Of a stretch of DNA of 32,000 bases, positions 1 to 24,027 are shown one piece after another (positions within the stretch are counted from its first letter, which is position 1; each line of letters begins with the position of its first letter). A program made the position numbers and the translations under genes. The stretch spans positions 30,001 to 62,000 of the forward strand of contig JBBIMK010000009.1 in NCBI GenBank assembly GCA_037444445.1, given 5' to 3'. Below the pieces are notes generated by a model that made no database searches, had not been told where the DNA came from, and was given only the letters and a program-made list of their open reading frames with translations. Source of the DNA: a bacterium. Lineage in GTDB: Bacteria; UBP7; UBA6624; JBBIMK01.

Positions 1-1284
1 CGGCACGAAGGTCTGTTGAACCTGCAATCGGCCAGATTCCACCCATTCCTCACTCATCCAGAAGCCCGGTGCATAGGCTTCCGCAAGGGGCAGACGAACC
101 TCCTGCCCCGGCTTGAAAATGCGAATGCCATCAGGCAAATAAAAATAAATCGTCTTGAAATCTGAAGGAGGCAAACTGTAAACCCCTCCGCTATTCAGGG
201 AAGAATCTTCCTCTCCGGTGAACTTCCAGAAATACTCCTCTCCATCTCCTTCAAGCCAGACAAAAGAATAGGGGCTGGATACAGTGGATAAGGGGGGTGC
301 AAGAGTTATTTTCCCCGAAGTCCGGGAGTCAAAAATTCGGGTGGACGAAATCCATTCCTTTTCTCCATCTTTTATTCCATACACCGCAACCTGAAAAGGC
401 CGGGGTGCACGGGGAAAGTAACTCAATCCCTCGCCGTCCGAGGTTAACGGTGGAAGTAGAAGAAATCGGGAGGGCTGGATGATTTCCACCCTGTAAGGCT
501 CCCTCCCATACCCCTCCAGTTGCACTTCAATTTCTTCATCAAAAGGCTGGGGAAGGTGAAAAAACTGGAGTAAGGAAGAAACGGGAGAAAAGTAGAACAA
601 TCTCCGGGAAGAATCAAAAATCCTGAAAGAGCGGTGCTCTCCACCCCGCAGGAGTAAAGAAACTGCCCTCTCATCAACGGTATAGACCCCATCCGGAGAA
701 ACGCCCTCAGGAGCCGATGGAATTTCTATCGGAAGTTCATCTATGTCTTGCCCTTTCTGAACCCTGAGGATAGAGCCTGCGGGAACCATATCCAGTGAAA
801 CTTTTCCGCCTCCATCCGTTAGCCCGAATAGAAGTTTTTCCTGCTGGAAGAAGAGAGAAAAGGACACACTTCCCACCGGTTTTCCTGTTCTTCGCTCCAC
901 CACTTCCAGATAGAAATATCGCCCTGTTGGGTGGAGTATCATAGATAGGGAAGTAATCAAAAATGTCCGAACCGCTTCGCAGGCGCCGGATTGGAAAATT
1001 GTGCGATAATATCCTCGTTCCAGGGGCTTCTTCAGCGGTCCCGGGAAGGGCCCGGAATAGAGAGACTCAAATCCTCCCTCATCCTCCAGAAATTCTCCCT
1101 CCCATTTTTCTACTTGAATCGTGAACGGTGGAGGGCAGGGAGGTTCACCCAGGGAAATCGTTTCACCGGGTGAAAAACGCCAGAGAGATGAAGCAGGGGT
1201 GGAAACAGAAGCCACAGAACCTGCCATTAGAACCGCTAACCACCAGAGTGGAATTCGTGAAATTGAAAATGGGAGGGGTGTCAA
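1..1284 (-). CDS. Hypothetical secreted protein, C-terminus cut by the window start (absent from the supplied ORF track)
   Basis: My own translation of the minus strand, in the frame with codon first bases at positions divisible by 3, is stop-free from 1284 down to base 1 (428 codons). It reads (TTG)TPLPFSISRIPLWWLAVLMAGSVASVSTPASSLWRFSPGETISLGEPPCPPPFTIQVEKWEGEFLED...YSLPPSDFKTIYFYLPDGIRIFKPGQEVRLPLAEAYAPGFWMSEEWVESGRLQVQQTFVP. The N-terminus looks like a signal peptide only if TTG 1284..1282 is the start. That TTG overlaps the TGA (1283..1281) of the upstream gene (TTGA). ATG 1227 would cut the hydrophobic segment. No family recognised. Confidence 0.6.
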   Translation of the reverse strand, partial: MTPLPFSISRIPLWWLAVLMAGSVASVSTPASSLWRFSPGETISLGEPPCPPPFTIQVEKWEGEFLEDEGGFESLYSGPFPGPLKKPLERGYYRTIFQSGACEAVRTFLITSLSMILHPTGRYFYLEVVERRTGKPVGSVSFSLFFQQEKLLFGLTDGGGKVSLDMVPAGSILRVQKGQDIDELPIEIPSAPEGVSPDGVYTVDERAVSLLLRGGEHRSFRIFDSSRRLFYFSPVSSLLQFFHLPQPFDEEIEVQLEGYGREPYRVEIIQPSRFLLLPPLTSDGEGLSYFPRAPRPFQVAVYGIKDGEKEWISSTRIFDSRTSGKITLAPPLSTVSSPYSFVWLEGDGEEYFWKFTGEEDSSLNSGGVYSLPPSDFKTIYFYLPDGIRIFKPGQEVRLPLAEAYAPGFWMSEEWVESGRLQVQQTFVP

Positions 1285-2462
1285 ATACTCCCGACCATGG
1301 CATCATCCGGCCGGTCAAACGGATAGACTTCAATTTCCGTCTTTTTCGCTTCCCGCAGAACCTGAAGTTTTAACTTATCATCCGGTCCTAACTGTCGGAT
1401 GTTCAGCGCCAGGTCTCGTGGACTTTTATACAGGATTTCCTCGGTCACCAATTGGCCAGCGGGGGATTGGCGCGTGAACTTGGCGCCCAGGATAATGTCA
1501 CCCACCCGAAGCCCACGCTTGGCCGCAGGTCCTTTGAGATCCACAGTATCCACGATAATTCCTGCATCCTTCTCTATCCATTCTTCAGGCATACCGGCGA
1601 AAATCCGAAGGAGTTTCGTGGTGGGTGAAGCGATGACCCCAAACCAGGGGTGATAGATTTTCCGTCCCGCAATTAAATCAAAAGCATACTGCCGAAGGTC
1701 ATTGGAAGGGAATACAATGTTCAAATTCTGCACTTCCCGCACCAGTTCTGTGGGAATGATAGTGGATTGCTCCACTGCCAGGGCATTGATGCCCAGCACC
1801 TCACCTCGCATATTCGCCAGCGGTCCTCCCAGATTGTATAGGTAAAAGCGAGCATCCGTCTGAATCACCTTCGGAACGAAGTAATCCCAGTTCATGTAGT
1901 AATCCCGAACGGAACTAATGACACCCACGGATGCGGCTACCGTTTCCCCCAGCGGATATCCGAGAGCCAGCACGGTTTCTCCCGCTTGAACTGCGGAGGA
2001 ATCTCCGAAGGTAACAGCGGGGAAAGGACCCGGGCCCAGAATCTGGATGATGGCGAGGTTATTCCAGCGGTCATAATTCGCCAGACGGGCGGGCAGAATC
2101 CGCCCGTCGTGGAGGCGAACCTGCATTTCCTTCGCCCCCTTCACCTGTGTATACAGCGTAACCGCATACCCCTCGGGTGATACGATGAATCCTGAAGTTC
2201 CACCCTGGGCTATCAGACGCTGGAAGGAGCGACGAAACACGGGCGACTGATATAATGTCGTCACCACTTCCACAGACACCACCGCCGGCGCTACCTTCTC
2301 CACTGCTTCCACGAAGGCAAAACTTCCAGGGTCAAACACATAGGTGGGAGTCATTGCAGAGCAAAAAAGCAACAGGCTTACTCCCACCACCCAGAAGATG
2401 GAACTCTTCTTCCCCCGGCTATCCATCTTTTCACCCCTTTCCCGCCATTGGCTCCCAGCCAT
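1281..2462 (-). CDS. HtrA/DegP-family (S1C) homologue with one PDZ domain; all three catalytic-triad positions substituted, so a predicted pseudoprotease
   Basis: 393-aa ORF with an N-terminal anchor or signal (SSIFWVVGVSLLLFCSA). The trypsin-fold blocks align by eye to DegS/DegP: TSGFIVSPEGYAVT, NLAIIQI, VLALGYPLG, IQTDA...GGPL. A C-terminal PDZ is present (GIIVDTVDLKGPAAKRGLRVGDIILG). Triad positions read T (TLYTQV where TN.HV is expected), N (NNLAIIQI where D.AVLKI is expected) and L (YNLGGPL where GNSGGPL is expected). The start is ATG 2462 (GAGG 7 nt upstream) or ATG 2426 (AGGGGTG 5 nt upstream). Confidence 0.85.
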   Translation of the reverse strand: MAGSQWRERGEKMDSRGKKSSIFWVVGVSLLLFCSAMTPTYVFDPGSFAFVEAVEKVAPAVVSVEVVTTLYQSPVFRRSFQRLIAQGGTSGFIVSPEGYAVTLYTQVKGAKEMQVRLHDGRILPARLANYDRWNNLAIIQILGPGPFPAVTFGDSSAVQAGETVLALGYPLGETVAASVGVISSVRDYYMNWDYFVPKVIQTDARFYLYNLGGPLANMRGEVLGINALAVEQSTIIPTELVREVQNLNIVFPSNDLRQYAFDLIAGRKIYHPWFGVIASPTTKLLRIFAGMPEEWIEKDAGIIVDTVDLKGPAAKRGLRVGDIILGAKFTRQSPAGQLVTEEILYKSPRDLALNIRQLGPDDKLKLQVLREAKKTEIEVYPFDRPDDAMVGSI

Positions 2463-2471
2463 TTCTTTGCC

Positions 2472-3674
2472 TCAAACGGTTCCCCCGGCGCCCGCAGGGG
2501 GCTGGGGCTGCTCTTCTATCCGCAAAGTCACCAGTCGGAACACACCGCCCCGCCGAATGAAAAATTCCACCGAGTCCCCCACTGACATACTCCGAATCAT
2601 CTTCCGAAGTTCAAAGGCATCTTTGTATACTTTCCCGTTAACGGAGTAAATCACATCCCCGGCGGCAAGCCCCGCCTGCTCCGCCGGCGAGCCCGGAAAA
2701 ACCCCCTTGATTTTTACCGGATATTTCATTCCCTTGTAAAATTCATCTAATCTCAGAATCTCTTCCTTGATATAACGCTGAATATCCTGCTGTGGATTAA
2801 ACCCCTGCTCTACACCGGGCCAGCCACCGATATAAGTAGGATTCCTCTCCTGAGGGGTCCAGAAGATGAAGAGCCCTGCCCACGGGTAAATCACCCGCCC
2901 GTATTTTAAGATGTCTTCCGCACTCTTCTTCGCATCGTTGATGGGGTAGAAAAGATTTTGTGCCTCCATCGCACTGGAACCCCAGGAGTTAATCCCAATC
3001 TGCTCGCCCCGGGCATTAAAAGTGGCTCCCCCGCTGTTACCGGCATTGATGGTGGCCGTGGATTGAATTATCCAGGTGAGTTCCTTACCATAGTCCGGAT
3101 TATTGAAAACATCCTCCGCACTCATCAGCGGAAATGGATATTCAAAATCCTTCACAATACCCACCGTTACAGTGTTCACCAGCTGGAACTCTTTGAGCCG
3201 GAATCCCGGGTTGAATTGCTCAATCATAAATCCTAAGGAGGCATCGCCGGGAGAGCCAATGGCGAAAACCAGGTCATTTTTCTGAATCTTCTCAGAATCC
3301 GCCAGGTCTACATACGGGAAGACTCTGGGTTCCGGGGTGATGATTTTCACCAGGCCGAAATCCACCTTCACATTAGTGCCCACCACTTTCCCGGGAAGCA
3401 CCTCCCCATTATCCAGAGTAATATCTACGAGTTTAGCGGAGGTGACCACATGCCAGTTGGTGTAGATATAGCCATCCGGCGAGACGATGGAGCCGCTTCC
3501 TCCACCCCCCCCTGCTCCACCGGGGCTCCGATGTAACACCCGAACCATGGCAGGCTTCACTTTCGCCACCACCGGCGTCAGGTCCATCGTCGCTATCCCT
3601 TCCGCTCCCTGCTCCTCCGTTGCTTCCAGCGACAGCACCATAAAAGAAAGCAAAAGGATAGAAAGTTTTTTCAT
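2472..3674 (-). CDS. htrA: HtrA/DegP-family periplasmic serine protease with PDZ domain; catalytic triad intact
   Basis: The triad motifs are present: YIYTNWHVV (His), VDFGLVKI (Asp), NAGNSGGA (Ser). PDZ: GVFPGSPAEQAGLAAGDVIYSVNGK. The ORF-track start at 3695 is a GTG lying inside the SD. ATG 3674 has AGGAGGG 8 nt upstream and gives a clean signal peptide, MKKLSILLLSFMVLSLEA. ATG 3674..3672 overlaps the upstream TGA 3673..3671 (ATGA). Confidence 0.9.
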   Translation of the reverse strand: MKKLSILLLSFMVLSLEATEEQGAEGIATMDLTPVVAKVKPAMVRVLHRSPGGAGGGGGSGSIVSPDGYIYTNWHVVTSAKLVDITLDNGEVLPGKVVGTNVKVDFGLVKIITPEPRVFPYVDLADSEKIQKNDLVFAIGSPGDASLGFMIEQFNPGFRLKEFQLVNTVTVGIVKDFEYPFPLMSAEDVFNNPDYGKELTWIIQSTATINAGNSGGATFNARGEQIGINSWGSSAMEAQNLFYPINDAKKSAEDILKYGRVIYPWAGLFIFWTPQERNPTYIGGWPGVEQGFNPQQDIQRYIKEEILRLDEFYKGMKYPVKIKGVFPGSPAEQAGLAAGDVIYSVNGKVYKDAFELRKMIRSMSVGDSVEFFIRRGGVFRLVTLRIEEQPQPPAGAGGTV

Positions 3675-4711
3675 CTTTTCATCCCTCCTTTCCACTCGGC
3701 GATGGTCACATCTCGCTCAAGGATGCGGCCATCCCGCCAGATTTTCACTGAAAAAGTATCCCCGATATTCAACTGATTCACAGGAATCCAGAAGTCCTGA
3801 GGCAGGGTAAGAGATTTCCCCCCCAGTTCCAGCAGGAAATCGTTGGCACGAATCCCCGCTTTATCGGCTGGACTCCCCTCATCTACGAAAGTAACAAATA
3901 GTCCATAATCATACGGGTATCCGTAGCGGGTTCGCTGGGTGTCATCCACCACCAGCAAAGATACCCCGGTCCAGGGGCGGGCGAATCGCCCCTTCTCCAC
4001 TATCTCCTTCACCACTCTCCGCACCGTATTCACCGGAATGGCAAAGTGCAAGTATAATTCCTTATATTGCTGACGCAGGAAAGTAAGAACCCCCACCACT
4101 TCTCCTCGGAAATTCAAAAGAGGTCCCCCCTGCATTCCGTAGGAAATAGGGGCATCCGTTTGAATAAAGGTAGTCACTCCACCTTCCGCCCAGGGTCCCG
4201 CGGTGGGCAGTGCAGAAAGTATCCCGAAAGAAGGTGTGAACAGCCCATTTGAACTCACACCGACGGCAATCAGAGGCTCACCCACTCTCGGTGATTCGTT
4301 CTCGGGCAGGAAAGGAACCGCGGTCAGTTTCTCCGCCCGGATGCGAACCACTGCCACATCCGTCGGCTCATCCATTCCCAACAGCACCCCCTCATAACTT
4401 TTCCCATCTGAAAGAATCACCTGGATATAACGGGCATACTTCAAGGTTTGAGCCGTCGTGAGTATATATCCCTTTTTGTCATCAAAAATGAATCCAGAGC
4501 CTACTTCCGTAAGGGTTGCGTCACCCAGAATCCCTCGCTTACGCTCTAAAAAACGAACCTTCACCTGCACCAGAGCCGGTAACACTCCGTTGGAAATATC
4601 ATTCATCCGCTGGGCATAAGGATGTATTTCCCGGGGCACGGTGGTGCCGAAAAGGAACACCATACAGACCCCCCCCACCAGTCCAGCCATTTTCAGCCTG
4701 AGTCCTTTCAC
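3671..4711 (-). CDS. HtrA/DegP-family homologue with PDZ domain; catalytic His and Ser both replaced by Gln, so a predicted pseudoprotease
   Basis: 346-aa ORF. GTG start at 4711 lies 6 nt after AGGAGG (4718..4723). TM anchor: MAGLVGGVCMVFLF. GSGFIFDDKKGYILTTAQTL shows Q at the His position. PTDVAVVRI keeps the Asp. ISYGMQGGPL shows Q at the Ser position. PDZ: FVDEGSPADKAGIRANDFLLELGG. Confidence 0.85.
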   Translation of the reverse strand: MKGLRLKMAGLVGGVCMVFLFGTTVPREIHPYAQRMNDISNGVLPALVQVKVRFLERKRGILGDATLTEVGSGFIFDDKKGYILTTAQTLKYARYIQVILSDGKSYEGVLLGMDEPTDVAVVRIRAEKLTAVPFLPENESPRVGEPLIAVGVSSNGLFTPSFGILSALPTAGPWAEGGVTTFIQTDAPISYGMQGGPLLNFRGEVVGVLTFLRQQYKELYLHFAIPVNTVRRVVKEIVEKGRFARPWTGVSLLVVDDTQRTRYGYPYDYGLFVTFVDEGSPADKAGIRANDFLLELGGKSLTLPQDFWIPVNQLNIGDTFSVKIWRDGRILERDVTIAEWKGGMKR

Positions 4712-4724
4712 CGCATTCCTCCTC

Positions 4725-5096
4725 TCATTCCAGTAATCCTGTAACTTCCTGTTTTCCGGAGACCTTCAAATTATTGATCACATCCCTCACCTTCTCCACA
4801 CCTCGGGCAAGGGCCTCTGCTTTTTTCTTCTGCTCCTCCGTTTCCAGCTCCCCATCCAGGATGACCACCCGATTCTTCACCGTAATTTTCACATTTTTCA
4901 ACTGAAGGGCAATATAGGGGTCAGAAGCGAGGCTCTCCAGCACAGTGGTCTGGATGGCCATATCAATGCTTTCCACCGCCATATGCTGGGGCGCCAGAGA
5001 AGTTCTCTCCCGCATCGTCCTCCCCTTCCCCTCACACGCCACTCCCATTCCTATCGCCAGCACCAGCGCCACAAGTACACTCCCTCTCATCGCCAT
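4725..5096 (-). CDS. BON-domain (OsmY-like) lipoprotein
   Basis: 123 aa. Lipobox-like signal VLAIGMGVAC. A single BON pattern is present: DMAIQTTVLESLASDPYIALQLKNVKITVKNRVVILDGELETEEQKKKAEALARGVEKVRDVINNLKV. This matches the D..I...V...L......I.V.V.nG.V.L.G.v.....k..A......V.GV..V.N.L.V consensus. The stop codon lies just beside (1 nt from) the SD of the next gene. Confidence 0.75.
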   Translation of the reverse strand: MAMRGSVLVALVLAIGMGVACEGKGRTMRERTSLAPQHMAVESIDMAIQTTVLESLASDPYIALQLKNVKITVKNRVVILDGELETEEQKKKAEALARGVEKVRDVINNLKVSGKQEVTGLLE

Positions 5097-5156: not shown

Positions 5157-6497
5157 TCAGACGGAAAGCCCCCGCAAAAGGCTTCGGTCAGGGGTAAACG
5201 CCGAGGCCGCCTGGGCTGCATAATTCTGCACCAGGTAATATCCCACCCCTCCCACCACCAGCGCAATGAACACCACAGAAATCAGCAAGGCTCCCACGGC
5301 ATTCCCCCGTCGCATATGCCCGAATTCCGCCAGGGCCACGATGGTCAAATACAGCCCCCACAGAAATAGAATTCCTGCAAGCCCATACAGGACAGCGGAG
5401 CCCGAAAGAAATGCCATGTCCCCCGCATATCCAGAGAGAAAAAAAGGCACAAACAGGAAGGATGACCCCTTCCAGACCCAGGGAAAGGTGGTATATTGTC
5501 GGAGTATCACCAGAGCGAGGAAGAAACTCACGGAGTAGACCAGCCAGAGAGCCAGAACAAGGAAAGGAATGAGGTAAGGCCCATAAGTGAGCATTTGCTC
5601 ATACGGCTGGAGAGCACGGCGCCGAACATCATACAGAAGCGCCTGCCTCATATCCTCATCCTTCGTCATCTGGTTAATGGCTGACACAGATTGTATCTGA
5701 GCCTGAGTCATAACCATCTGGTCAAAGTTTGCCATCAAATTGTCCGCATTTTGAAACATTCTTGCCGAGGTCAGAGAGCCCGTAAGCAGGACGATAAACA
5801 GGGGGTAAAGGAAAGTGGCTCCTCGGGCGGTGTCCCGGAAAACATCCCCGGGTGCTACCACCAGCCGATAAAGGTCCACCCAGAAATCTTTCCACAAAAA
5901 AATCAAAATAATCAACGCCAGAAGAACCATAGAGAAAGCACCCATATTCCGTCCCGTGACCGTCCAGAATGGGGTTGCCCAGACCAAACGGTAGTTCCCG
6001 GTGAATTTCAGCGTCCGAAAAATTTGGTCCACTCCTTTAACATCGGATGAGAACTCTGCCGCCGGCGCCTCATACCGGAAGAGATAATCCTTCAGAACCG
6101 TTGGAATCGCTGCCACATATATCCGCACTGAAGCGCTCTCCTTCCGAGCCTCCAGGATTTTCACATACTGCCCATCCACCCGTAAAAGCCCTGCATCCGA
6201 AACCTTGAACCCCTCCTTTTCCAGTCCTTCCCGGAGAGCCTTCACTTTCCGGTCCGTTGCCTCCACAGGCCGGTCCAGGAGCTCTTCCTCGGTGGTAATG
6301 GTCAAAGTGGCTTTTCCAGAGAATTTCAGCACGAGAGTTCCCTTCTCCTCGGTAACGGAGAGGGAGGAAGGGTGACGAAAAAAAAGCCCCCATTCTGTGT
6401 TGTAATAAGGGGTCGTGCCAAAATTCTGCAATACCGTGCACCCGGACAGCACTCCCACAAAAGATAACAAAATCCAACCTCTCCTCTTCGCCATCAC
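5157..6497 (-). CDS. Polytopic membrane lipoprotein: roughly 170-aa periplasmic N-domain plus a multi-TM C-domain (tentatively Yip1/DUF1282-like)
   Basis: 446 aa. Lipoprotein signal: KRRGWILLSFVGVLSGC. About six hydrophobic helices follow, for example FSMVLLALIILIFLW, FLYPLFIVLLTGSL, YLIPFLVLALWLVYSVSFFLALVIL, VLYGLAGILFLWGLYLTIVAL and VGALLISVVFIALVVGGVGYY. The start is GTG 6497 or ATG 6494, with no SD. The family call is tentative. Confidence 0.6.
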   Translation of the reverse strand: MMAKRRGWILLSFVGVLSGCTVLQNFGTTPYYNTEWGLFFRHPSSLSVTEEKGTLVLKFSGKATLTITTEEELLDRPVEATDRKVKALREGLEKEGFKVSDAGLLRVDGQYVKILEARKESASVRIYVAAIPTVLKDYLFRYEAPAAEFSSDVKGVDQIFRTLKFTGNYRLVWATPFWTVTGRNMGAFSMVLLALIILIFLWKDFWVDLYRLVVAPGDVFRDTARGATFLYPLFIVLLTGSLTSARMFQNADNLMANFDQMVMTQAQIQSVSAINQMTKDEDMRQALLYDVRRRALQPYEQMLTYGPYLIPFLVLALWLVYSVSFFLALVILRQYTTFPWVWKGSSFLFVPFFLSGYAGDMAFLSGSAVLYGLAGILFLWGLYLTIVALAEFGHMRRGNAVGALLISVVFIALVVGGVGYYLVQNYAAQAASAFTPDRSLLRGLSV

Positions 6498-6645
6498 TGA
6501 TGAAAGTGTATGACGAAATCACAAAAAAATCAAGGGATTCCTGATTTCCACCTCAGAGGATGTTACAGGATGCCAGTGTGGAGCCTTTCCCCTCTTGGCG
6601 GGGCGGAGATAGAATCCCCCCTGAATGTATCACCGAGGAATGCGG

Positions 6646-6671
6646 GTGGGCGAGCCGACAGGCTCGCCCAC
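6646..6671 (-). terminator. Perfect 11-bp GC-rich stem-loop 36 nt downstream of the groEL stop (possible terminator, processing or stabilising hairpin; no U-tract)
   Basis: GTGGGCGAGCC-gaca-GGCTCGCCCAC is read directly from the sequence. On the minus strand it is followed by CCGCATTCC, not a T-run. It is flanked by complementary CCGAGG and CCTCGG. Confidence 0.35.
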
Positions 6672-6706: not shown

Positions 6707-8329
<1,623 letters not shown>

Positions 8330-8345: not shown

Positions 8346-8636
8346 TTAATCTTCCACGATGGCGAGAATGTCATCTTCCCGGAGGATTAAGTATTCATCC
8401 CCCTTATACCGAACCTCATTCCCGCCATATTTGGAAAACAGCACCTTCTGCCCTTTCTTCACTTCCATGGAGGCTCTCTGCCCATTCTCCAAAAGCCTTC
8501 CGGGTCCCACCGCAATCACCTCACCGAGGATGGGCTTATCCTTCGCTACATCCGGTAACACGATGCCGCCTTCACTGACGGCTTCCTTCTCCAGACGCTT
8601 CACCACAACCCTGTCTCCTAACGGCTTTAACGCCAT
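8346..8636 (-). CDS. groES: Co-chaperonin GroES (Cpn10)
   Basis: 96 aa: LKPLGDRVVVKRLEKE...GGIVLPD.AK.KP..GEVIAVGPGR...V..GQKVLFSKYGG.EV...GDEYLILREDDILA. AGGAGG lies 6 nt upstream of the ATG. Confidence 0.97.
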   Translation of the reverse strand: MALKPLGDRVVVKRLEKEAVSEGGIVLPDVAKDKPILGEVIAVGPGRLLENGQRASMEVKKGQKVLFSKYGGNEVRYKGDEYLILREDDILAIVED

Positions 8637-8671: not shown

Positions 8672-8698
8672 TTAGCACTCTCGTGCCTTGACCGCTAA
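8672..8698 (-). promoter_or_regulatory. CIRCE-like inverted repeat (putative HrcA operator) in the groES leader
   Basis: The plus strand reads TTAGCACTC-N9-GACCGCTAA, against the consensus TTAGCACTC-N9-GAGTGCTAA. One arm matches 9/9 and the other 7/9. It starts 3 nt downstream of the -10 hexamer. Confidence 0.75.
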
Positions 8699-11594: not shown

Positions 11595-12689
11595 TTACTG
11601 TTCTACGGTGCCGCCGGTGGCTTGCTCGGTTCCAGCGGAGTAGTAAACCACGACGCCGTCATAACGACCATCCTGGTTGGGTGTGCTCACATCCGTGGCT
11701 CGGGCAACCCCTGGTGCAGGAACAAAGGCCACATTGGGTATCTCCGCCACGCCCAGGAGTGTGCCCTGAGAGCTCACTCCACCATAGCCCGGCTCATTTA
11801 ACCAAATCGAGCCCGGGATAAAAGCGTTAGGATTCTGACGGCATCCGAACCTGTCTACCACCGTGCCTGACAGGGTGCCAAACTCTGTGGGCAGACCGTT
11901 TAGTCCACCGTTTGGATTTCGTGTCCCCCAGCAGTGCAGGACATCCTTCCCCACAGTGCGGACCGAGCCATACCCAGCCAGCAGGAAGTGGTCAATAGAG
12001 AATGGCCTCATAATGCCTCCGGTGGTGCCTAACTGGCGGATAATCCCCGGCGTTACCCCGTAAGCCCGATAGGCGAACTCACCCGGAATCCAGTCCACCG
12101 TCTGGGTGTTATCATCCCCCATGAAGTAGTAAATTACCTGCTGTTGACCAGTGGCTAAAGGGTTATCACTGGGTAACGGACTCAGGGTGCCGCACTGGGA
12201 AGTCTGGGTATTGCAGTTGTTGGTGTCTCGTCCGGGGTAATTCGGGTCCGATAGAATGTTACCCAGAAGATCGCCGCCTTGTGGCCGCGGGGGTAAGCCC
12301 GCTCTCCACCAGCAGCCGAAGCGCGGGTCCAGGTTGGTCCGAATGCAGAGAGAGCTTCCGTCCTTCATAAATGGATTCCGATGGTAAGAAGTTTGATACC
12401 CGTAGAAAATTAAGGGGTCCATGGGCTGTGCAGTAGCGAGAGCAGCCCACCCTTGCCCATTGGTCCAGGAAGCCACATCCCCACCGTAAATATAGTTCGG
12501 ATATAGGCCATCCTGATCCGTGGCGTATCGCTCCAGGGATATCTGGATGGCGTGGACGGAGGACTTGGTTTGCACCTCCAGCGCCTTGTCCTTCGCCTTG
12601 ATGAAGTTGGGAAGGGCAAGGGAAACCAGTATCCCGATGATGGTGATGACCACCAATAACTCAATGAGGGTAAACCCTCTACGAATCAT
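11595..12689 (-). CDS. Large type IV pilin / GspG-like prepilin (364 aa, 6 Cys)
   Basis: Class III signal peptide MIRRG|FTLIELLVV with Glu at +5. A GspG-like helix follows: LPNFIKAKDKALEVQTKSSVHAIQISLERYATDQDGLYP. The globular part is about 300 aa. SD GGAGGTG lies 5 nt upstream. Confidence 0.85.
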   Translation of the reverse strand: MIRRGFTLIELLVVITIIGILVSLALPNFIKAKDKALEVQTKSSVHAIQISLERYATDQDGLYPNYIYGGDVASWTNGQGWAALATAQPMDPLIFYGYQTSYHRNPFMKDGSSLCIRTNLDPRFGCWWRAGLPPRPQGGDLLGNILSDPNYPGRDTNNCNTQTSQCGTLSPLPSDNPLATGQQQVIYYFMGDDNTQTVDWIPGEFAYRAYGVTPGIIRQLGTTGGIMRPFSIDHFLLAGYGSVRTVGKDVLHCWGTRNPNGGLNGLPTEFGTLSGTVVDRFGCRQNPNAFIPGSIWLNEPGYGGVSSQGTLLGVAEIPNVAFVPAPGVARATDVSTPNQDGRYDGVVVYYSAGTEQATGGTVEQ

Positions 12690-12822
12690 AAAAACACCTC
12701 CTTTTTTCCGTCAGGGAGAAAAGGAAGCCCGCTTTTTCAGGGAGAACCCTGTGGGGCGCCCTTTCTTTTTTATCTCTCTTCAATGCAGGCTTCCCTTCCT
12801 CTCTGCACGGAATTTTTATTCC

Positions 12823-13992
12823 TTACTTCAGTTCCCGTTTGGGCTCCTTATCCAATCCACCGTAAACCAGGGTGATAATTTGGTCAGGCGTGCCATCAGG
12901 GCCACTTCCACTGGGTCCCACCTCATCTCCAGGCTTCAGGGGCGTAATGGTATAGGTGCACTGCCAGGTACTTGGCGGGACTTTGTAGAAGGGGACATTC
13001 ATCGGGTCTGGCTCAAAGGAGAAATATCCCGTGAGAAACCCGTGAGCACCGCCGAAGGAGGTCCAACACCAACCCCCCGCACCCGGTGGTTCACAGCAGG
13101 AGCGGTGCATATAATCGTAGCCCAGGGTTTTGATAGAGCCGAAGCCCACGAGAACATATCCGCAGACGGCGTGGGAAAGGATTCGGGCCGCCGGTAGGCT
13201 ACCCGTGTTGTTCAAGGCTTCCAGATGGGCATCCACGGTCTCACCGTCGCAGAAAACCGGGTGATAAAAGAACTGACCCGGCACATCCATGCTCGGAGGA
13301 CCATACTGCTGACGATAGCCGGACATGTCATTTGCCCACAAATCCGTCCACACCGATTCGCCTTTCCCCCAGCCGAGGTCGAACATAAGGTTGCCATATC
13401 TGCCTCCCACGGCGTAACCAGGGCTGTAGAGTTGAACATAAGGGGACCCCGCAGCCCAGACGCTGTTGATGTTTGGCGGTATGAACGGATTCTTCGGATA
13501 CTCGCTCAGATAGCCGAACATCAACAGCATGTCCATGCAGACTTCCTTGCTCGGGGAGTTGGGACCCCGATACTCCGGAACTCTCTGCTTCAGGGTTCCC
13601 AGTTCAGGCAGACAGTAAGGCCGGTTGGTGTTGCAATCCACAAAGTCCGGCGGGTTTAGCCAACTGCCATCGTAATCCAGGAAGGCAGATTCACCGGCGT
13701 TCGTTCCCGGATTGCATCCGGAGGAACTAGCGTATGGTCCTCCGTCTGCACTGGCGATATTGAACTCCTGGTCACCTCCCGTGACTACCTGTGGATAGAG
13801 CCCCGCATTTTCCACAGCGTAGCGCTCCAGTGCCATCTGAATGATGTGGATGTTGGCTTTGATCTGCGTTTCCTTCGCCTTATCCCGCGCCCGTATATAG
13901 TTGGGTAAGGCGATAGAAACCAGAATTCCCAGAATCACCATAACCACCAGTAACTCAATAAGCGTGAAACCTCGAATCATTCGGGATTTCAC
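12823..13992 (-). CDS. Large type IV pilin / GspG-like prepilin (389 aa, 10 Cys)
   Basis: MKSRMIRG|FTLIELLVVMVILGILVSIALPNYIRARDKAKETQIKANIHIIQMALERYAVENAGLYP. GTG start at 13992 lies 7 nt after GGAGGTG (14006..14000). Confidence 0.85.
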   Translation of the reverse strand: MKSRMIRGFTLIELLVVMVILGILVSIALPNYIRARDKAKETQIKANIHIIQMALERYAVENAGLYPQVVTGGDQEFNIASADGGPYASSSGCNPGTNAGESAFLDYDGSWLNPPDFVDCNTNRPYCLPELGTLKQRVPEYRGPNSPSKEVCMDMLLMFGYLSEYPKNPFIPPNINSVWAAGSPYVQLYSPGYAVGGRYGNLMFDLGWGKGESVWTDLWANDMSGYRQQYGPPSMDVPGQFFYHPVFCDGETVDAHLEALNNTGSLPAARILSHAVCGYVLVGFGSIKTLGYDYMHRSCCEPPGAGGWCWTSFGGAHGFLTGYFSFEPDPMNVPFYKVPPSTWQCTYTITPLKPGDEVGPSGSGPDGTPDQIITLVYGGLDKEPKRELK

Positions 13993-14086
13993 CGCGTATC
14001 ACCTCCTTTCAGATTCTTGTTGTTCTCTTTCATTTTTTGGGTTCCTTCGTTTTACCGCCTTTCATCCTCGGATAACGAAGTAGCCT

Positions 14087-15226
14087 TTACGGCGGTGGCC
14101 CCTGACCTGAGGCTTCGCATCCGGGCTTCCGGGTGTCCATGAGCACCTTCACATCCACGCCGGAGGAGAGAACGGTGATGACACCGTCTGGCAACCCGTC
14201 AGGACCGTTATACACGCAGTAAGCATCGCGTGCGGAGGCATAGTTCAAGTCCCCCGGTTCCAGTTTGCAATCCCCCTCCGCATCATCACAGGCGAGAGTG
14301 CTCTCTGCGTAATCGCCCAGGACATCATAGACATCGTGCCCGCGATTCCAGCTAGCACCATAGCCTGCCAGATGATAGCCCACCACCTTTGCCTGCATAA
14401 AGAACCCTGTCCAGACATAATTCGAGTCTGGCTGTATGGGGTAGTAGTAGAAGTTGCCCGGTAGGTAATTGTGGAGGATTTTGTTGGAGGTTTGAGCCTG
14501 GGCGGGGTCGCAGCCGGGGCTCCCTAACTTGCATCGGATGGAATAGGGTGGGTGCCCTGCCCAGCCTCGGGCGGTAACGGTAAGCCCTGATACAGTATTA
14601 TTCAATTGCCCCCCGCGCTGGCAAGCGCCTTTGCCTAACCCATAAGCCCCGGAAGGACCGCAGATGGCTCCGTAAACCCCCTCGCTGACATCCCACATAA
14701 AGGAGTTGGTAGGTCCGCCCACATGTCGACAAGAGGCGTCGTCGGCTGATTGACACCGATTGTTGGGGAAAACCGTGCTGTAGTTGCAGAACACATCGGC
14801 GTTGCCCCCCATGTTATTTGGCCAGCGCGGGTGTGGACACTCCCGCACCTGAAACTGGATTCCGGTGCCCGCCGCTGACATAAAGGGATTGTTAGGGTAC
14901 CGATTGAGGTAGCCGTATTCCATGAGTGGGTCCCCATCCCCGCAGGGCTGGCTGATCCTCGGGCAGTATATCGGGGCAAAGGGGGAAGCATTCCAGTCGT
15001 CGTAATTCCCCCCCAACAGCCACTTGGGAAAGGCCCCGTCATTATCCGAAGCATACCGTTCCAGCGCAGTGCGGATAATGTGCAGGTTCGCCTCCACCTG
15101 CTTCTCTCGCGCTTTGTCCCGCACCCTCGTGTAGTTGGGCAACGCAATGGCCACCAGTATCCCGATGATGACCATGACCACCAGTAACTCAATCAGTGTG
15201 AATCCACGAATCATTCGGGATTTCAC
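14087..15226 (-). CDS. Large type IV pilin / GspG-like prepilin (379 aa, 14 Cys)
   Basis: MKSRMIRG|FTLIELLVVMVIIGILVAIALPNYTRVRDKAREKQVEANLHIIRTALERYASDNDGAFP. GTG start at 15226 lies 7 nt after GGAGGTG (15240..15234). The leader is identical to that of the 12823..13992 paralogue. Confidence 0.85.
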   Translation of the reverse strand: MKSRMIRGFTLIELLVVMVIIGILVAIALPNYTRVRDKAREKQVEANLHIIRTALERYASDNDGAFPKWLLGGNYDDWNASPFAPIYCPRISQPCGDGDPLMEYGYLNRYPNNPFMSAAGTGIQFQVRECPHPRWPNNMGGNADVFCNYSTVFPNNRCQSADDASCRHVGGPTNSFMWDVSEGVYGAICGPSGAYGLGKGACQRGGQLNNTVSGLTVTARGWAGHPPYSIRCKLGSPGCDPAQAQTSNKILHNYLPGNFYYYPIQPDSNYVWTGFFMQAKVVGYHLAGYGASWNRGHDVYDVLGDYAESTLACDDAEGDCKLEPGDLNYASARDAYCVYNGPDGLPDGVITVLSSGVDVKVLMDTRKPGCEASGQGPPP

Positions 15227-19609: not shown

Positions 19610-21814
19610 TCATCGTTTTTCCCGTCTCATTTTCATTGTAGCATCTTTTTTATTTCTGTCAACTCTTACATCCAGGTGCCTTATACCAGCCTGCAGTGCC
19701 ACCAGGGATTCGGGGGATGGAGGCTCTCCCCCATAAAAATACTTCTCCACACAGGTTAACAGCCCGTGAATTTCCCGCTCCGACGATGGTGAAACCCGGA
19801 GGACAGAAACCAGATACTCCCGATAGGTTGCCGAAGGCGAGCGCGGGAACCCGGCTTTCTTTTCCACCCTCCCCACCAGCGATAACAGCCTCTCCCGGAA
19901 AGAGGGCGAACGCGGAAAACGCCCACCCATAGATAAAATGACAGAATGGATATGGTGATAAGCATAAGGGAAAAAAAGAGGCAGCAGGAACGCAAGGATT
20001 AGAGGAACTTTTACCCGGTTGAACCAATTCCCAATAGGCCTCGCAAGCGTAGATACATAATACGACAGCGTGGCGGCGAGGAAAGCCAGACGGTCCTGAA
20101 AATAATTTCCCGGGCTGAGAGGGTTCACATCCCGGCTGAGACCCCCCACACCACCCGGGTTTGTCACGGAAACATTCTGCAAAACCTCAGGCGTGGGGTC
20201 CATCGTTATCCAGGCATAATTTGGGATATACGCTTCCACCCACGCATGGGCATCCTTATCCTTCAGCGTAAAACTCCCCTGCAAGAAATCATACTCCCCG
20301 CCCATATACCCACCCACCACTCGCGCAGGGATTCCCACCGCTCTTAACAGCACAGCCATCGCACTCGCATAAAACTCACAGTACCCACTCCGCCCCTCAA
20401 ACAAGAAATAATCCACCGCATCCCGGTCCCTCGGAATCCTCCCCAATTCCAGCTTGTACTGGTAACGCGGCGAATTCAGGAATCTCCGTATCGCCTCCAT
20501 CTTCTCATAAGCGGAAGCAAAGCCGTCCGTAATCTCGTGCGCCAGCGCATAAACCCGCTCAGGAACCTCAGGCAATTCCAGATACCGCCTCAGGACCATG
20601 GCCTCCCTGGAGGGTAGTGAATCCACCCGATAAATTTTCAGGGTCGTCTCATCCGTCTTCACCACATACGACTCTACGGAGTAAGAATACCCCGGGTTTA
20701 ACACAAAAGAGGTTCGCAACGACCCCTCCCGGTCCGACGACACGAAACTACCCTCCTGGCGGTGAAATGAAAACGGTAACCTCACCGAAACGGGCTCCCA
20801 CAGGGCAAACAGCACATTCGGGTGAGGTTTCAACACCCGAAAAGTAGTTCTCACCCTTTCATATTCGTAATCCCGCTCCTCATCAGGCTCTATCAGAGGA
20901 ATATACCCCTTTTCCGAGTCAACCGAATGAGGTGTCAGGGGCGAATGCGAGGGGATTTCCCATCCCCTGCCCGTATAAGTCGTGAACACCAGCCCGCGGA
21001 AATACCCCGCAAAAGGAGCAGAAACCTCCATCGCAGGCTCCTCCGACAGGTGGATACTTTCCCCCGATGCCAGTTGCAAGTAAGGCGAGAAGCCCGAATA
21101 CCGCACATAAGCGGGAGGCAGGTCATCCGAAAAATTTAACGGCACAAGACTTCCAATGGTTCCGCCGGCAGAGGTGGGTCCAGCCAGCAACACCAGAGAC
21201 TCACCCCGGGGAATCTTCGCTACCATCAAGAACACAATAGATGAAAGCAGAAAAGCCCATAGAAAAATGTTCAACCCCAGGCGGAAGAAGACGGGCACAG
21301 TCCATTTCTCTCGCTTCTCCAGATTTTTCTGAAAACCTCCCCGTTGGATAAACATAGTGGATTCCCCAAAGATGACCAGTAGCAGGCTTGCCAGCCCCAG
21401 AATCGCAAAAAGTATCCCCGTAAAATTATAAAGGGATAGACCCCCGGTGAACAGCGACACCGCTACAGGAAACGACAGGAAAAATAGCACATCCTGAAGG
21501 GTAAATAACCGGAGGAGAAAAACTATCAACAGCCAGGGAACCAGCCGGCCGATATAGAGATAAAAGTTACCAAAATCCTTCACCCCCTGATAAGTATAGT
21601 AAGTGAACAAAAGGAAGGAACAAATTTCTCCCAGTATCCGAACCCACTTGTGCAGTGAGCGAGGAATGAACAGGCTGAGAAAAAAACTGCCGTTCATCAG
21701 GGCATAGAGAAGGATTGCCTCATAGGGCTTGTAGGAAAGCGCCAGAAACACCAGCGCAAAACACAAAGAGGAAATCACCCATACCAGCACATACTGGAGG
21801 GTGGAAATGGGCAT
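19610..21814 (-). CDS. Membrane transglutaminase-like protein (TgpA-like: N-terminal polytopic domain, transglutaminase core, C-terminal TM tail)
   Basis: The core keeps an intact Cys/His/Asp arrangement: EGRSGYCEFYASAMAVLLRAVGIPARVVGGY, KDAHAWVEAY, ITMDPT. The start is uncertain. ATG 21814 has AAAGGG 9 nt upstream. ATG 21862 has AGGAGG directly abutting the ATG. GTG 22033 from the ORF track would overlap the upstream gene by 194 nt. Confidence 0.85.
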   Translation of the reverse strand: MPISTLQYVLVWVISSLCFALVFLALSYKPYEAILLYALMNGSFFLSLFIPRSLHKWVRILGEICSFLLFTYYTYQGVKDFGNFYLYIGRLVPWLLIVFLLRLFTLQDVLFFLSFPVAVSLFTGGLSLYNFTGILFAILGLASLLLVIFGESTMFIQRGGFQKNLEKREKWTVPVFFRLGLNIFLWAFLLSSIVFLMVAKIPRGESLVLLAGPTSAGGTIGSLVPLNFSDDLPPAYVRYSGFSPYLQLASGESIHLSEEPAMEVSAPFAGYFRGLVFTTYTGRGWEIPSHSPLTPHSVDSEKGYIPLIEPDEERDYEYERVRTTFRVLKPHPNVLFALWEPVSVRLPFSFHRQEGSFVSSDREGSLRTSFVLNPGYSYSVESYVVKTDETTLKIYRVDSLPSREAMVLRRYLELPEVPERVYALAHEITDGFASAYEKMEAIRRFLNSPRYQYKLELGRIPRDRDAVDYFLFEGRSGYCEFYASAMAVLLRAVGIPARVVGGYMGGEYDFLQGSFTLKDKDAHAWVEAYIPNYAWITMDPTPEVLQNVSVTNPGGVGGLSRDVNPLSPGNYFQDRLAFLAATLSYYVSTLARPIGNWFNRVKVPLILAFLLPLFFPYAYHHIHSVILSMGGRFPRSPSFRERLLSLVGRVEKKAGFPRSPSATYREYLVSVLRVSPSSEREIHGLLTCVEKYFYGGEPPSPESLVALQAGIRHLDVRVDRNKKDATMKMRREKR

Positions 21815-21839
21815 CTGCCACAGCCCTTTCCCCCTTTGT

Positions 21840-23108
21840 TTATCCAGAATAGAGTAAGTCATCCTCCTGTGATAAAGTATACACCCTGGCTCCCCCGGAT
21901 GCAACCTGCTGGAGAAACTTCTGCACAGGGTCCCGAGGGAGAGAGAGAGGAGAAATCTTGCCTGAATCCGCCCCCCCACCGGAACGAAAAGCCTCGGGAT
22001 TGATGTAAAAAAAGGATACAGAAGCCACAACACAACTGAGGTGATGGAGAATCGGAATCATTTCCTCCCTGATGCTGGAGGTGAATAAAAGGAGATGAAG
22101 GTTGGGAGAACGAAGATGAGACAGGAGGCGGAGAAGCACGGTAGAGAAGGGGTTAGAGCCTTTTCCCTGAATGCAGGCTAATTTTTGGAAGGCCACAAGA
22201 AGGGAGGCAGGTCCCGAAGCAAGGGTGAAATCCATTCCATCCGGCTCATCAAAATAAACACTCCCCAGTGCACCCGTAGAGAAATAGTAATGCGCCACGG
22301 AAGCGGCAGAGCGAATAGCCACCTCCAGGGTATTCCGGGGACCATCCCCCAGAATTTGATGGGGGTCCACATCCACCACGATTAAGAAATTCCCCCCCAT
22401 TTCCCTGAGGAACTGTTTCAGGACCGGGAAACCCAATCGGGCGGAGGTGAGCCAGTGAATATTCTTAAATGGGTCCCCCGGGACATACGGACGCAGTCCG
22501 ATGAATTCATCCCCCGCTCCTTCCAGGGATACGCTGGGTCGCAGAGGAAGCGGTGAGCCCCCGCCCGCTTCCAGGGGAAAAGAGGTGAGAATGAGAAACC
22601 GAGGATACACGGTGAATGCCCGTTCTATCCGGAATATCTCCTGCACCTGATATAACTTCATCGGGTCCTGCGATTCCAGAACTATAGTGGAAAACGGATA
22701 GATTCCCCGACGCACACTCCGAAGGCTGAAAGGATAACGCACCTCCTCCCCTTTCTGAATCCGGGCAAGATGAATTTCCAGCGGCGACTCTATATAGGGC
22801 GCCTGAAAACTCACTTTTAACAGAATCTTCTGAAGTGGCGTGTGATTCCGCACCACCACTTCACCCTGAAAACTATGCCCCTCTACATTCCCCTCCGGAA
22901 CCCGCAGGTCCACACTCACTCCCCGGAGACTCCGAGTCACCCAGATGAAGGCGATGATGTGTAAAGCCACGAAGAAAGATAGCACCGCATCCAGCGTTTC
23001 CACAGCAGCACTCGTAACAGACAGCACAAAGATAAAAAGGGCAATGAGCAAAAGAGAAATCCCCCGGGGTGCTATGAAATACCGGGTCCTATGCGATGGG
23101 AACTTCAT
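21840..23108 (-). CDS. DUF58-family protein (vWA-like, MoxR partner)
   Basis: 422 aa with two N-terminal TM helices. DUF58 signature: GDEFIGLRPYVPGDPFKNIHWLTSARLGFPVLKQF...FLIVVDVD. It overlaps the MoxR stop by 20 nt. Confidence 0.85.
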   Translation of the reverse strand: MKFPSHRTRYFIAPRGISLLLIALFIFVLSVTSAAVETLDAVLSFFVALHIIAFIWVTRSLRGVSVDLRVPEGNVEGHSFQGEVVVRNHTPLQKILLKVSFQAPYIESPLEIHLARIQKGEEVRYPFSLRSVRRGIYPFSTIVLESQDPMKLYQVQEIFRIERAFTVYPRFLILTSFPLEAGGGSPLPLRPSVSLEGAGDEFIGLRPYVPGDPFKNIHWLTSARLGFPVLKQFLREMGGNFLIVVDVDPHQILGDGPRNTLEVAIRSAASVAHYYFSTGALGSVYFDEPDGMDFTLASGPASLLVAFQKLACIQGKGSNPFSTVLLRLLSHLRSPNLHLLLFTSSIREEMIPILHHLSCVVASVSFFYINPEAFRSGGGADSGKISPLSLPRDPVQKFLQQVASGGARVYTLSQEDDLLYSG

Positions 23109-24027
23109 GAAGAAGAGCCGTGAGAACCTCTTTCTCCGTAAGACCGGAGACCTTCAGATGAGGCTTCAGATACACCCTGTGGGAGAGCAGTGGGACAAAA
23201 AGTTCTTTCACATCGTCCGGAATCACATACTCCCTGCCCCGAAGAAAAGCCAGAGCCTGAGAAGTGCGTAATAGCCCCAGGGCACCCCGAGGACTGGCCC
23301 CCAGCAGAAAATCCCCGTGCCTGCGAGTGGCATCCCCTAACGCCACGATGTATTCCAGAATGGAACCCGACACCTTAATATGCCGTATCGCCCTCTGTAG
23401 TTCCAGAATCTCTTCCTTCCCTACCACTGGAGTTATCGTGGTGATAGGGTGCTGAAGCATCTGGTCTAACAACATTTGCACCTCTTTCTCCGGGGGGAGA
23501 TAGCCCAGGGAAATCCGCATCATAAACCGGTCCAGTTGTGCCTCCGGTAGCTTATACACCCCTTGATATTCCACCGGGTTCTGCGTGGCAACAACGAAAA
23601 AGGGGTCATCCAGAGGTGTGGTAATTCCCTCCACCGTCACTTGATGTTCTTCCATCGCTTCCAGGAGAGAGGATTGAGTCCGAGGCGTTGCCCGATTGAT
23701 TTCATCCGCCAGGAGAATATGAGTGAAGATAGGCCCCTTTTTGAAGTCAAAATCACTGGTTTTCTGATTATAAATGTAAGCGCCCGTGATGTCCGAAGGC
23801 AAGAGGTCTGGCGTCAATTGAATCCGCCGAAAGGTGAGTTGGGTGGAAAGGGCAAGGGCTTTGGCCAGTGTGGTTTTCCCGGTCCCGGGCACATCTTCAA
23901 TCAGAAGATGTCCACCCGCAAGGAAGCAAACGAGGCACTGCTCCACGACAGAGTCTTTCCCGATAATCACCCGCTGAACAGAATTTTTCAGCTGGGAAGC
24001 GAGAGCGAATCCCTGGTCCCAGTTCAA
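23089..24027 (-). CDS. MoxR-family AAA+ ATPase
   Basis: 312 aa: VIIGKD..VEQCLVCFLAGGHLLIEDVPGTGKTTLAKALA (Walker A), ILLADEINRATPRTQSSLLEAMEEHQVTVEG (Walker B / sensor), FFVVATQNP.E..G.Y.LPEAQLDRF. TTG start at 24027 lies 7 nt after GAGGAGG. Confidence 0.92.
   Translation of the reverse strand: MNWDQGFALASQLKNSVQRVIIGKDSVVEQCLVCFLAGGHLLIEDVPGTGKTTLAKALALSTQLTFRRIQLTPDLLPSDITGAYIYNQKTSDFDFKKGPIFTHILLADEINRATPRTQSSLLEAMEEHQVTVEGITTPLDDPFFVVATQNPVEYQGVYKLPEAQLDRFMMRISLGYLPPEKEVQMLLDQMLQHPITTITPVVGKEEILELQRAIRHIKVSGSILEYIVALGDATRRHGDFLLGASPRGALGLLRTSQALAFLRGREYVIPDDVKELFVPLLSHRVYLKPHLKVSGLTEKEVLTALLHEVPIA

Follow-up and report, generated by a model that had tools for sequence, protein, structure and literature searches.

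Two catalytically degenerate HtrA paralogues flank one intact HtrA protease in a conserved envelope cassette of a rare bacterial lineage

Allosteric, homo-oligomeric, and ATP-independent, the HtrA proteases are a textbook type of quality-control enzyme, built on the trimer as basic unit. A live and a dead member of this family act together in the MamE/MamO pair, in which MamE-dependent proteolysis requires the HtrA pseudoprotease MamO to be present but does not require its triad, and such active/inactive HtrA pairs have evolved three times in magnetotactic bacteria (PMC4794232). Here, three tandem HtrA genes, named HtrA-A, HtrA-B, and HtrA-C in the order of their transcription (A, B, and C below), were analyzed in a 32,000-nt stretch of a bacterial genome (GenBank assembly GCA_037444445.1, contig JBBIMK010000009.1, positions 30,001 to 62,000 of the forward strand), referred to as the window. 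The closest described case is MamE/MamO. The three genes form the center of a conserved operon for envelope protein quality control in a rare, uncultivated diderm lineage, and A and C are probably non-cutting partners of the live B in cell-envelope protein quality control.

In the thylakoid lumen of Arabidopsis, the HtrA paralogues Deg5 and Deg8 share one hetero-oligomeric complex; it consists of two homotrimers, both proteins keep their triads, and Deg5 has no PDZ domain. In ClpP/ClpR rings and in the proteasome with its inactive beta subunits, both obligate hetero-oligomeric proteases, conserved inactive paralogues have structural or regulatory roles; the folds of these proteases are unrelated to HtrA, and they are ATP-dependent and chambered. 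Plant DEG7 and yeast Nma111p resemble the A/B/C set in combining active and degenerated HtrA protease domains, and the degenerated protease domain of DEG7 is specialized in a protein-protein interaction, trimerization (PMC3194040). In DegS, a peptide bound to the PDZ domain activates the subunit's own and the neighboring protease domain via Arg178 of loop L3 and loop LD' (PMC11642142), and in engineered HtrA2 heterotrimers how much a subunit contributes to activity depends on which subunits neighbor it (bioRxiv 10.1101/2021.10.04.462974).

The initial annotation, made from the letters of the window, had described the three proteins as HtrA paralogues that each have one PDZ domain and an N-terminal signal or anchor, and had read their triads by eye as Q/D/Q in A, H/D/S in B, and T/N/L in C. 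Both descriptions were borne out. Pfam Trypsin_2 matched all three proteins with E values of 2e-22 to 6e-23, and each had a PDZ_2, PDZ_6, or PDZ match. The NCBIfam models Do/DegP/DegS/HhoA matched A, B, and C well below their cut-offs, with 163 to 203 bits vs 416 for the HtrA/DegP/Do family, and by sequence the three are classed as divergent members of the HtrA superfamily, not as orthologues of any named enzyme. Triad positions were assigned by phmmer alignment to the solved structures of DegQ and MucD, and the aligned motifs were those quoted earlier, namely, TTA-Q-TL, T-D-VAV, and GM-Q-GGPL in A; TNW-H-VV, V-D-FGL, and GN-S-GGA in B; and TLY-T-QV, N-N-LAI, and YN-L-GGPL in C. At the position of the oxyanion-hole Gly193, Gly is retained in A and replaced by Tyr in C. 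The H-D-S triad together with the GNSGG oxyanion loop, a hallmark of the HtrA family, was found in B alone. The alignment thus identifies B as a predicted competent serine protease and A and C as HtrA homologues but not serine proteases. A and C have each lost both nucleophile and general base and so, by sequence, cannot cut; C additionally has neither the triad Asp nor the oxyanion Gly. Automated annotation calls A and C "S1C family serine protease", which is wrong as to activity.

AlphaFold2 monomer models of A and C were built from 44-sequence alignments. The model of A reached a pLDDT of 86.6 and a pTM of 0.81, with a TM score of 0.84 to DegS/DegQ-type structures, and the model of C reached a pLDDT of 87.5 and a pTM of 0.81, with a TM score of 0.82 to AlgW, MucD, and DegS. 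The top PDB matches of both were HtrAs composed of a protease and a PDZ domain (DegS, AlgW, MucD, DegP, and DegQ) with target-normalized TM scores of 0.80 to 0.85, and superposition on DegS/DegP confirmed the trypsin-fold scaffold that had been proposed for the flanking copies. The triad assignments were consistent between the sequence alignment and the structure superposition. The substrate-cleft framework IQTDA...GGPL is retained in the dead copies A and C, and the P-W-x-G-hydrophobic carboxylate-binding loop of the PDZ domain is conserved across all three clades. According to the models, the scaffold of A and C is preserved and only the catalytic chemistry is lost. Conservation of the fold, the substrate cleft, and the PDZ peptide-binding loop alongside loss of catalysis also fits the main rival to co-assembly with B, in which A and C would work independently of B as periplasmic holdase or chaperone HtrAs, form their own homo-oligomers, serve the same stress pathway, and be co-transcribed only through co-regulation. 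We consider this explanation possible but doubtful.

The A-B-C gene order was found at seven loci from at least four deep sublineages, and at all seven the genes are three separate open reading frames (ORFs) with their own starts, stops, and signal peptides. The middle copy was the only one with a complete triad throughout, with H/D/S in B at 7/7 loci. The triad of A was [Q/S/M]/D/Q at every locus, with Gln at the Ser position in all seven, and that of C was [T/S/D/E]/N (D once)/[L/I/R] in 7/7, with Tyr or Phe replacing the oxyanion Gly. The paralogues A, B, and C are 19 to 28% identical to one another compared with 35 to 57% between orthologues across sublineages, which indicates that the three-way split and the catalytic loss are old. 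Each of the three is 24 to 34% identical to ordinary HtrAs, exceeding the identity within the set.

Ratios of nonsynonymous to synonymous substitution rates (dN/dS) were calculated from the closest pair, the window and locus L008 (dS ~0.5 to 0.8). They were 0.17 for A, 0.12 to 0.15 for B, and 0.09 to 0.11 for C, compared to 0.07 for groEL and 0.18 to 0.21 for the Yip1-like gene that opens the cassette; the value of the live B is thus bracketed by those of the two dead copies. By this measure, A and C are as constrained as B and are held by purifying selection. No internal stops were present in any of the three HtrA ORFs on the minus strand. The earlier statement that the ORFs are full length, which argued against simple decay, therefore stands, and the Q/D/Q and T/N/L copies are under purifying selection, with non-catalytic residues kept in the flanking copies in 7/7 loci. 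If A and C were decaying duplicates or pseudogenes, or if the triad assignments were alignment artefacts, the missing triads would be accounted for and nothing further; intact ORFs at seven loci, dN/dS of 0.09 to 0.17, conserved replacement residues, confident AlphaFold2 models, and agreeing sequence and structure alignments contradict it. Simple decay or artefact is refuted on these grounds and retains next to no probability.

Relatives of the set are rare. In a word-indexed search of 5.8 billion proteins, few true orthologues of A and C were found before identity fell to the generic level of ~30%, and when a clade-C profile was run exhaustively with HMMER against 1.84 billion cluster representatives, only three of these belonged to clade C, among them a new distant member, P0242, with R/D/R at the triad positions. 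The clade-C alignment run against the GTDB species representatives gave 20 pattern matches and 0 relatives; the window genome and its kin are outside that set. A scan of JGI metagenomes yielded a single true orthologue, on the contig of locus L005, and the other 70 loci carried ordinary HtrAs. These 70 unrelated HtrA loci (676 kb, 68 HtrA domains) served as a background control. Every complete HtrA domain in them read H/D/S, and at none of the 70 was a second HtrA gene found nearby; the live/dead tandem is therefore not a background pattern. The GroEL encoded in the window is at most 65% identical to that of any of the 185,579 GTDB species representatives, with top matches spanning many phyla, and the sole named source is "bacterium JZ-2024 1", unclassified in the NCBI taxonomy. 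Reference collections contain essentially nothing of the host lineage.

The A/B/C set resembles MamE/MamO in that an HtrA with a degenerate triad lies in the same gene cluster as an active one. MamO combines the degenerate triad with a residue other than Gly at position 193; C has both features (Tyr/Phe193), and A has a degenerate triad but keeps Gly193. In contrast to MamE/MamO, the set lies outside any magnetosome context and lacks the di-histidine metal site and the fused TauE transporter domain, with no further domain of another kind either, and it comprises two dead copies rather than one, both with PDZ domains. Its neighbors are groESL and BON, Yip1-like, and SurA_N-like genes, not mam genes, and the NCBIfam MamO model scored 39.5 (A), 39.8 (B), and 61.9 (C) bits vs a cut-off of 800. 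A MamO-like metal-binding role for A and C was rejected on domain content, score, and context. DEG7 differs in being one eukaryotic polypeptide that forms a homotrimer, whereas A, B, and C are encoded by three bacterial genes, and every one of the three proteins has a targeting signal and a PDZ domain of its own. E. coli DegS shares with the set the architecture of a protease domain with one PDZ domain and an N-terminal anchor or signal; it differs as a homotrimer with three live sites, and A, B, and C are not its orthologues (TIGR02038 scores of 157, 98, and 115 bits, respectively, vs a cut-off of 423). In a literature search with most subscription journals outside its coverage, no bacterial operon was found in which two PDZ-bearing HtrA pseudoproteases flank one active HtrA. 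The initial annotation had recognized no described counterpart of the arrangement, and this stands for the exact two-dead/one-live operon but not for the pairing of live and dead HtrAs, which is known from MamE/MamO and DEG7. Two dead genes and one live gene, separate and within an envelope cassette, are a variant of that precedent.

At the A-B junction, the stop of A overlaps the start of B in ATGA (positions 3671 to 3674), and the ATG of B at 3674 is preceded by an AAGGAGG Shine-Dalgarno sequence 9 nt upstream. Over the seven loci, the spacing between the A stop and the B start was -4, -4, -4, -4, -4, -1, and +1 nt. This overlap or abutment in 7/7 loci favors coupled, equimolar synthesis of the two proteins. 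All three junctions had originally been described as tight. The ATGA and the TTGA at 1281 to 1284, where the start of the downstream gene (gene X) overlaps the stop of C, were confirmed, but the 9-nt gap given between B and C was not. The orthologues of C all begin at the Met that corresponds to M13 (ATG 2426), where a canonical signal peptide results; this start is therefore the likely one, and a B-C spacer of 45 nt is predicted as more likely than one of 9 nt. In the other loci this spacer is 22 to 45 nt.

Each of the clades A, B, and C carries its own near-invariant motif at the positions of loops L3 and LD. In A, the L3 loop P-x-A-G-P-W-A-E-G-G is near-invariant, and its GPWAEGG part has a pLDDT of <50 in the monomer model, as expected for an interface loop. 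B has a conserved insertion of ~25 residues, QLVNTVTxG...DYGKE, at the L3/LD positions, and C has an invariant L3 Arg with DYxVP, plus an LD-like G-[YF]-P-[LV]. Beyond the PDZ domain, the C-terminal tails of B (...EQPQxPxGAGGT[VIAL]-COOH) and C (...RPxDAxxG[ST][IFV]-COOH) are strongly conserved, and both end in G-[ST]-hydrophobic-COOH; A has no conserved C-terminal tail. PDZ domains bind free C-termini that end in a hydrophobic residue.

In the favored reading, A and C act non-catalytically together with B, most probably co-assembled with it in a mixed HtrA oligomer, which could be an A:B:C trimer or a stack of mixed trimers. For sensing or for substrate holding, the assembly would draw on PDZ and L3 surfaces of its dead subunits, which would also relay an activation signal in trans to the single live site in the manner of the L3-to-LD' signaling of DegS. 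In DegS, C-terminal peptides are sensed by L3 and the PDZ domain, and the signal passes on to the LD' and L1 loops of the neighbor, a mechanism that a mixed trimer would exploit (PMC11642142). The tails of B and C could be built-in ligands for the PDZ domains of the partners and in this way tether or gate the assembly. The same structural arguments hold equally if A and C are dominant-negative regulators that mix into B trimers and keep the protease off or diluted until stress shifts the stoichiometry. Inactive subunits do slow cleavage in engineered HtrA2 heterotrimers (bioRxiv 10.1101/2021.10.04.462974); a fixed operon stoichiometry with translational coupling would make a poor titratable inhibitor, and the MamO precedent is activating, not inhibiting (PMC4794232), and we hold this role to be very improbable.

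A search with the clade-C profile also revealed at least 18 single-chain proteins of ~750 to 1070 aa with three HtrA protease domains, exactly one of which reads H/D/S (P0245, P0247, P0248, P0253, P0254, P0258, P0267, P0270, P0283, P0285, P0312, P0314, P0350, P0360, P0365, P0372, P0381, and P0384). The domain order is mostly dead-dead-live, with live-dead-dead in P0270 and dead-live-dead, the order of the operon, in P0258. A single recognizable PDZ domain was present in each of the four that were scanned with Pfam (P0247, P0248, P0254, and P0360), and two-domain versions with one degenerate domain also occur (P0249, P0257, and P0260). These proteins share with A/B/C the 1:2 ratio of live to dead domains and differ in being covalently fused, usually with one recognizable PDZ domain. 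A Rosetta-stone fusion of A, B, and C was rejected, as their domains score higher on generic HtrA than on any clade profile. From their sequences they are judged to be convergent cases of the 1:2 ratio, and they may be covalent pseudo-trimers. No literature on three-domain single-chain HtrAs was found within the same limited journal coverage. A further protein, P0243 (1008 aa), is eukaryote-looking and has three to four Deg-like repeats, two of which read R/N/S and R/D/S at the triad positions; the sequence could stem from a wrongly joined tandem gene array, or it could be a genuine multi-domain Deg in which some units are degenerate.

Taken together, the A-B overlap, the clade-specific L3/LD loops, the B and C tails, and the convergent single chains are circumstantial evidence consistent with a hetero-oligomer. 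Stand-alone holdases would leave unexplained the A-B stop/start overlap at all seven loci, the clade-specific invariant loops at positions of inter-subunit signaling, and the recurrent one-live/two-dead ratio in single chains, none of which is decisive. Several observations weigh against co-assembly of A and C with B. Inactive DegP retains its chaperone activity alone, so that dead copies can be useful without a live partner, as stand-alone holdases would be. With a paralogue identity of 19 to 28%, a common trimer interface is not to be assumed. The B-C and C-X junctions are not consistently overlapped across the loci. In the monomer model of C the tail has a pLDDT of ~90 but forms no beta-strand, and no docking in cis to the PDZ domain is visible. 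The three-domain proteins do not represent fused A, B, and C and serve as an analogy only. HtrAs are moreover described as homo-oligomers (PMC3194040), and the genes around A, B, and C are chaperone-like (BON/OsmY-like and SurA_N-like, with groESL upstream in this sublineage), both of which suit stand-alone holdases. On balance, we see about an even chance that A and C co-assemble with the live B in some form of mixed HtrA oligomer. The specific form of an obligate asymmetric 1:1:1 A:B:C heterotrimer, with one catalytic site, dead sensor or holdase subunits, and tails docked in trans in the PDZ domains of the partners, is a tentative proposal and on present evidence somewhat unlikely.

The conserved cassette, present on all the contigs that encode the orthologues, comprises seven genes in the order Yip1-like, BON, A, B, C, X, and SurA_N-like lipoprotein (coordinates in the window are given in Table 1). 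All seven products have a signal peptide or lipobox at the N-terminus, which places them in a common compartment, the periplasm or envelope. The BON gene lies directly upstream of A at every locus reaching that far. The Yip1 match is weak in the window protein (2.2e-4) and significant in orthologues (2e-8 and 3.6e-7). The product of this gene has a lipoprotein signal with LSGC, an N-terminal periplasmic domain of ~170 aa without a known family, and a multi-pass Yip1-like C-terminal domain, an unusual architecture to which no bacterial function is assigned. At the other loci the SurA_N-like lipoprotein gene follows X, and in orthologous loci it is often followed by enolase and pyruvate kinase genes.

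Gene X encodes a secreted, Pro/Leu-rich protein of 843 to 926 aa and is always located directly after C (L008:11197-13977, L001:11134-13665, L003:11171-13738, L007:6138-8768, and L005:13408-15954), with a 4-nt overlap between the X start and the C stop at some loci. The X ORF of the window is 76% identical to the same-position gene in L008. X matched no Pfam or NCBIfam family, and a homologue search with the 428-aa fragment from the window gave no match, though orthologues exist in the cassette loci. An alpha-2-macroglobulin-like fold would agree with the only matches of X, which were faint and non-significant (E 0.03 to 0.08) and concerned an MG-like BiPBP_C domain and an alpha-alpha toroid of the prenyltransferase type. 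The cassette could be a dedicated maturation machine for X in which B cleaves and A and C hold or present the substrate, together with the SurA_N-like and BON proteins. The constant position of X after C, sometimes with the 4-nt overlap, its secretion, and its lack of a known family agree with such a role, as does the processing of specific co-encoded partners by MamE with MamO (PMC4794232). X evolves much faster than the HtrAs, with 19 to 40% identity between lineages and a dN/dS of 0.22, and this role is improbable in our estimate; it is compatible with either a mixed oligomer or stand-alone holdases and exclusive of neither.

The groESL operon lies next to the cassette in the window and in L008 and not in L001, L003, L005, and L007. 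The CIRCE element upstream of groES shows the same distribution, as the window and L008 have it and the four more distant loci lack it; no match to the promoter plus CIRCE element upstream of groES would be expected by chance. The cassette, and not its linkage to groESL, is the conserved unit, and CIRCE was ruled out as a cassette-wide regulator by its absence from the four loci in which the cassette lies away from groESL. Between groEL and the cassette, a GC-rich hairpin of 11 bp without a T-tract (6646 to 6671, minus strand, -23.7 kcal/mol) and a weak promoter-like sequence TTGATT-17-TACACT (6505 to 6533, minus strand), ~10 nt before the start of the Yip1-like gene, were noted. The cassette may be transcribed by read-through from groESL or as its own, nearly leaderless transcript.

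Table 1. Coordinates of the HtrA genes, the neighboring cassette genes, and the groESL region in the window
Feature	Position	Strand	Description
HtrA-A	3671..4711	-	346 aa; Q/D/Q; oxyanion Gly kept; one PDZ; conserved tail absent
HtrA-B	2472..3674	-	400 aa; H/D/S; GNSGG; one PDZ; conserved ~25-aa insertion and tail
HtrA-C	1281..2426	-	381 aa from conserved start; T/N/L; Tyr at Gly193; one PDZ; tail
HtrA-C alternative start	ATG at 2462	-	would give 393 aa
BON-domain lipoprotein, OsmY-like	4725..5096	-	Pfam BON 1.2e-14; lipobox; 13 nt upstream of A
Yip1-like multi-pass membrane protein, lipoprotein signal	5157..6494	-	LSGC lipobox; first cassette gene
Gene X, 5' part, 428 codons	1..1284	-	secreted protein, continues past the left edge of the window
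groES	8346-8636	-	upstream of cassette
groEL	6707-8326	-	directly upstream of cassette
Sigma-70 promoter TTGACA-18-TATAAT	8730-8701	-	12/12 consensus; upstream of groES
CIRCE/HrcA operator	8672-8698	-	2 mismatches; upstream of groES

Elsewhere in the window, three consecutive genes on the minus strand (11595 to 15226) encode proteins of 364 to 389 aa that each start with a prepilin N-methylation motif. The cluster that contains these genes also encodes three T2SS-E/PilB/PilT-type ATPases and a PilC/GspF-like platform protein. The three proteins with the prepilin motif are larger than is usual for pilin-like proteins and could be paralogues. Upstream of this secretion cluster, the region from 19610 to 24027 (minus strand) carries a triad of genes for a MoxR-type AAA ATPase, a DUF58 protein, and a TgpA-like transglutaminase membrane protein.

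Cross-talk between HtrA subunits has so far been studied with engineered mixed trimers, and a natural set of one live and two dead PDZ-bearing HtrAs would be a ready-made asymmetric trimer for asking which subunit senses, which holds, and which cuts. If the 1:1:1 heterotrimer were true, the three-domain single chains would be a covalent version of the same design, and asymmetric trimers with one active site would be a recurrent, hitherto unrecognized HtrA architecture. If A and C are partners of B, the concept, known from MamE/MamO, of a live HtrA under the control of a dead one would extend from a specialized organelle to general envelope proteostasis, and the three-domain single chains suggest that the principle of one live HtrA with dead partners may be far more widespread than this rare lineage.

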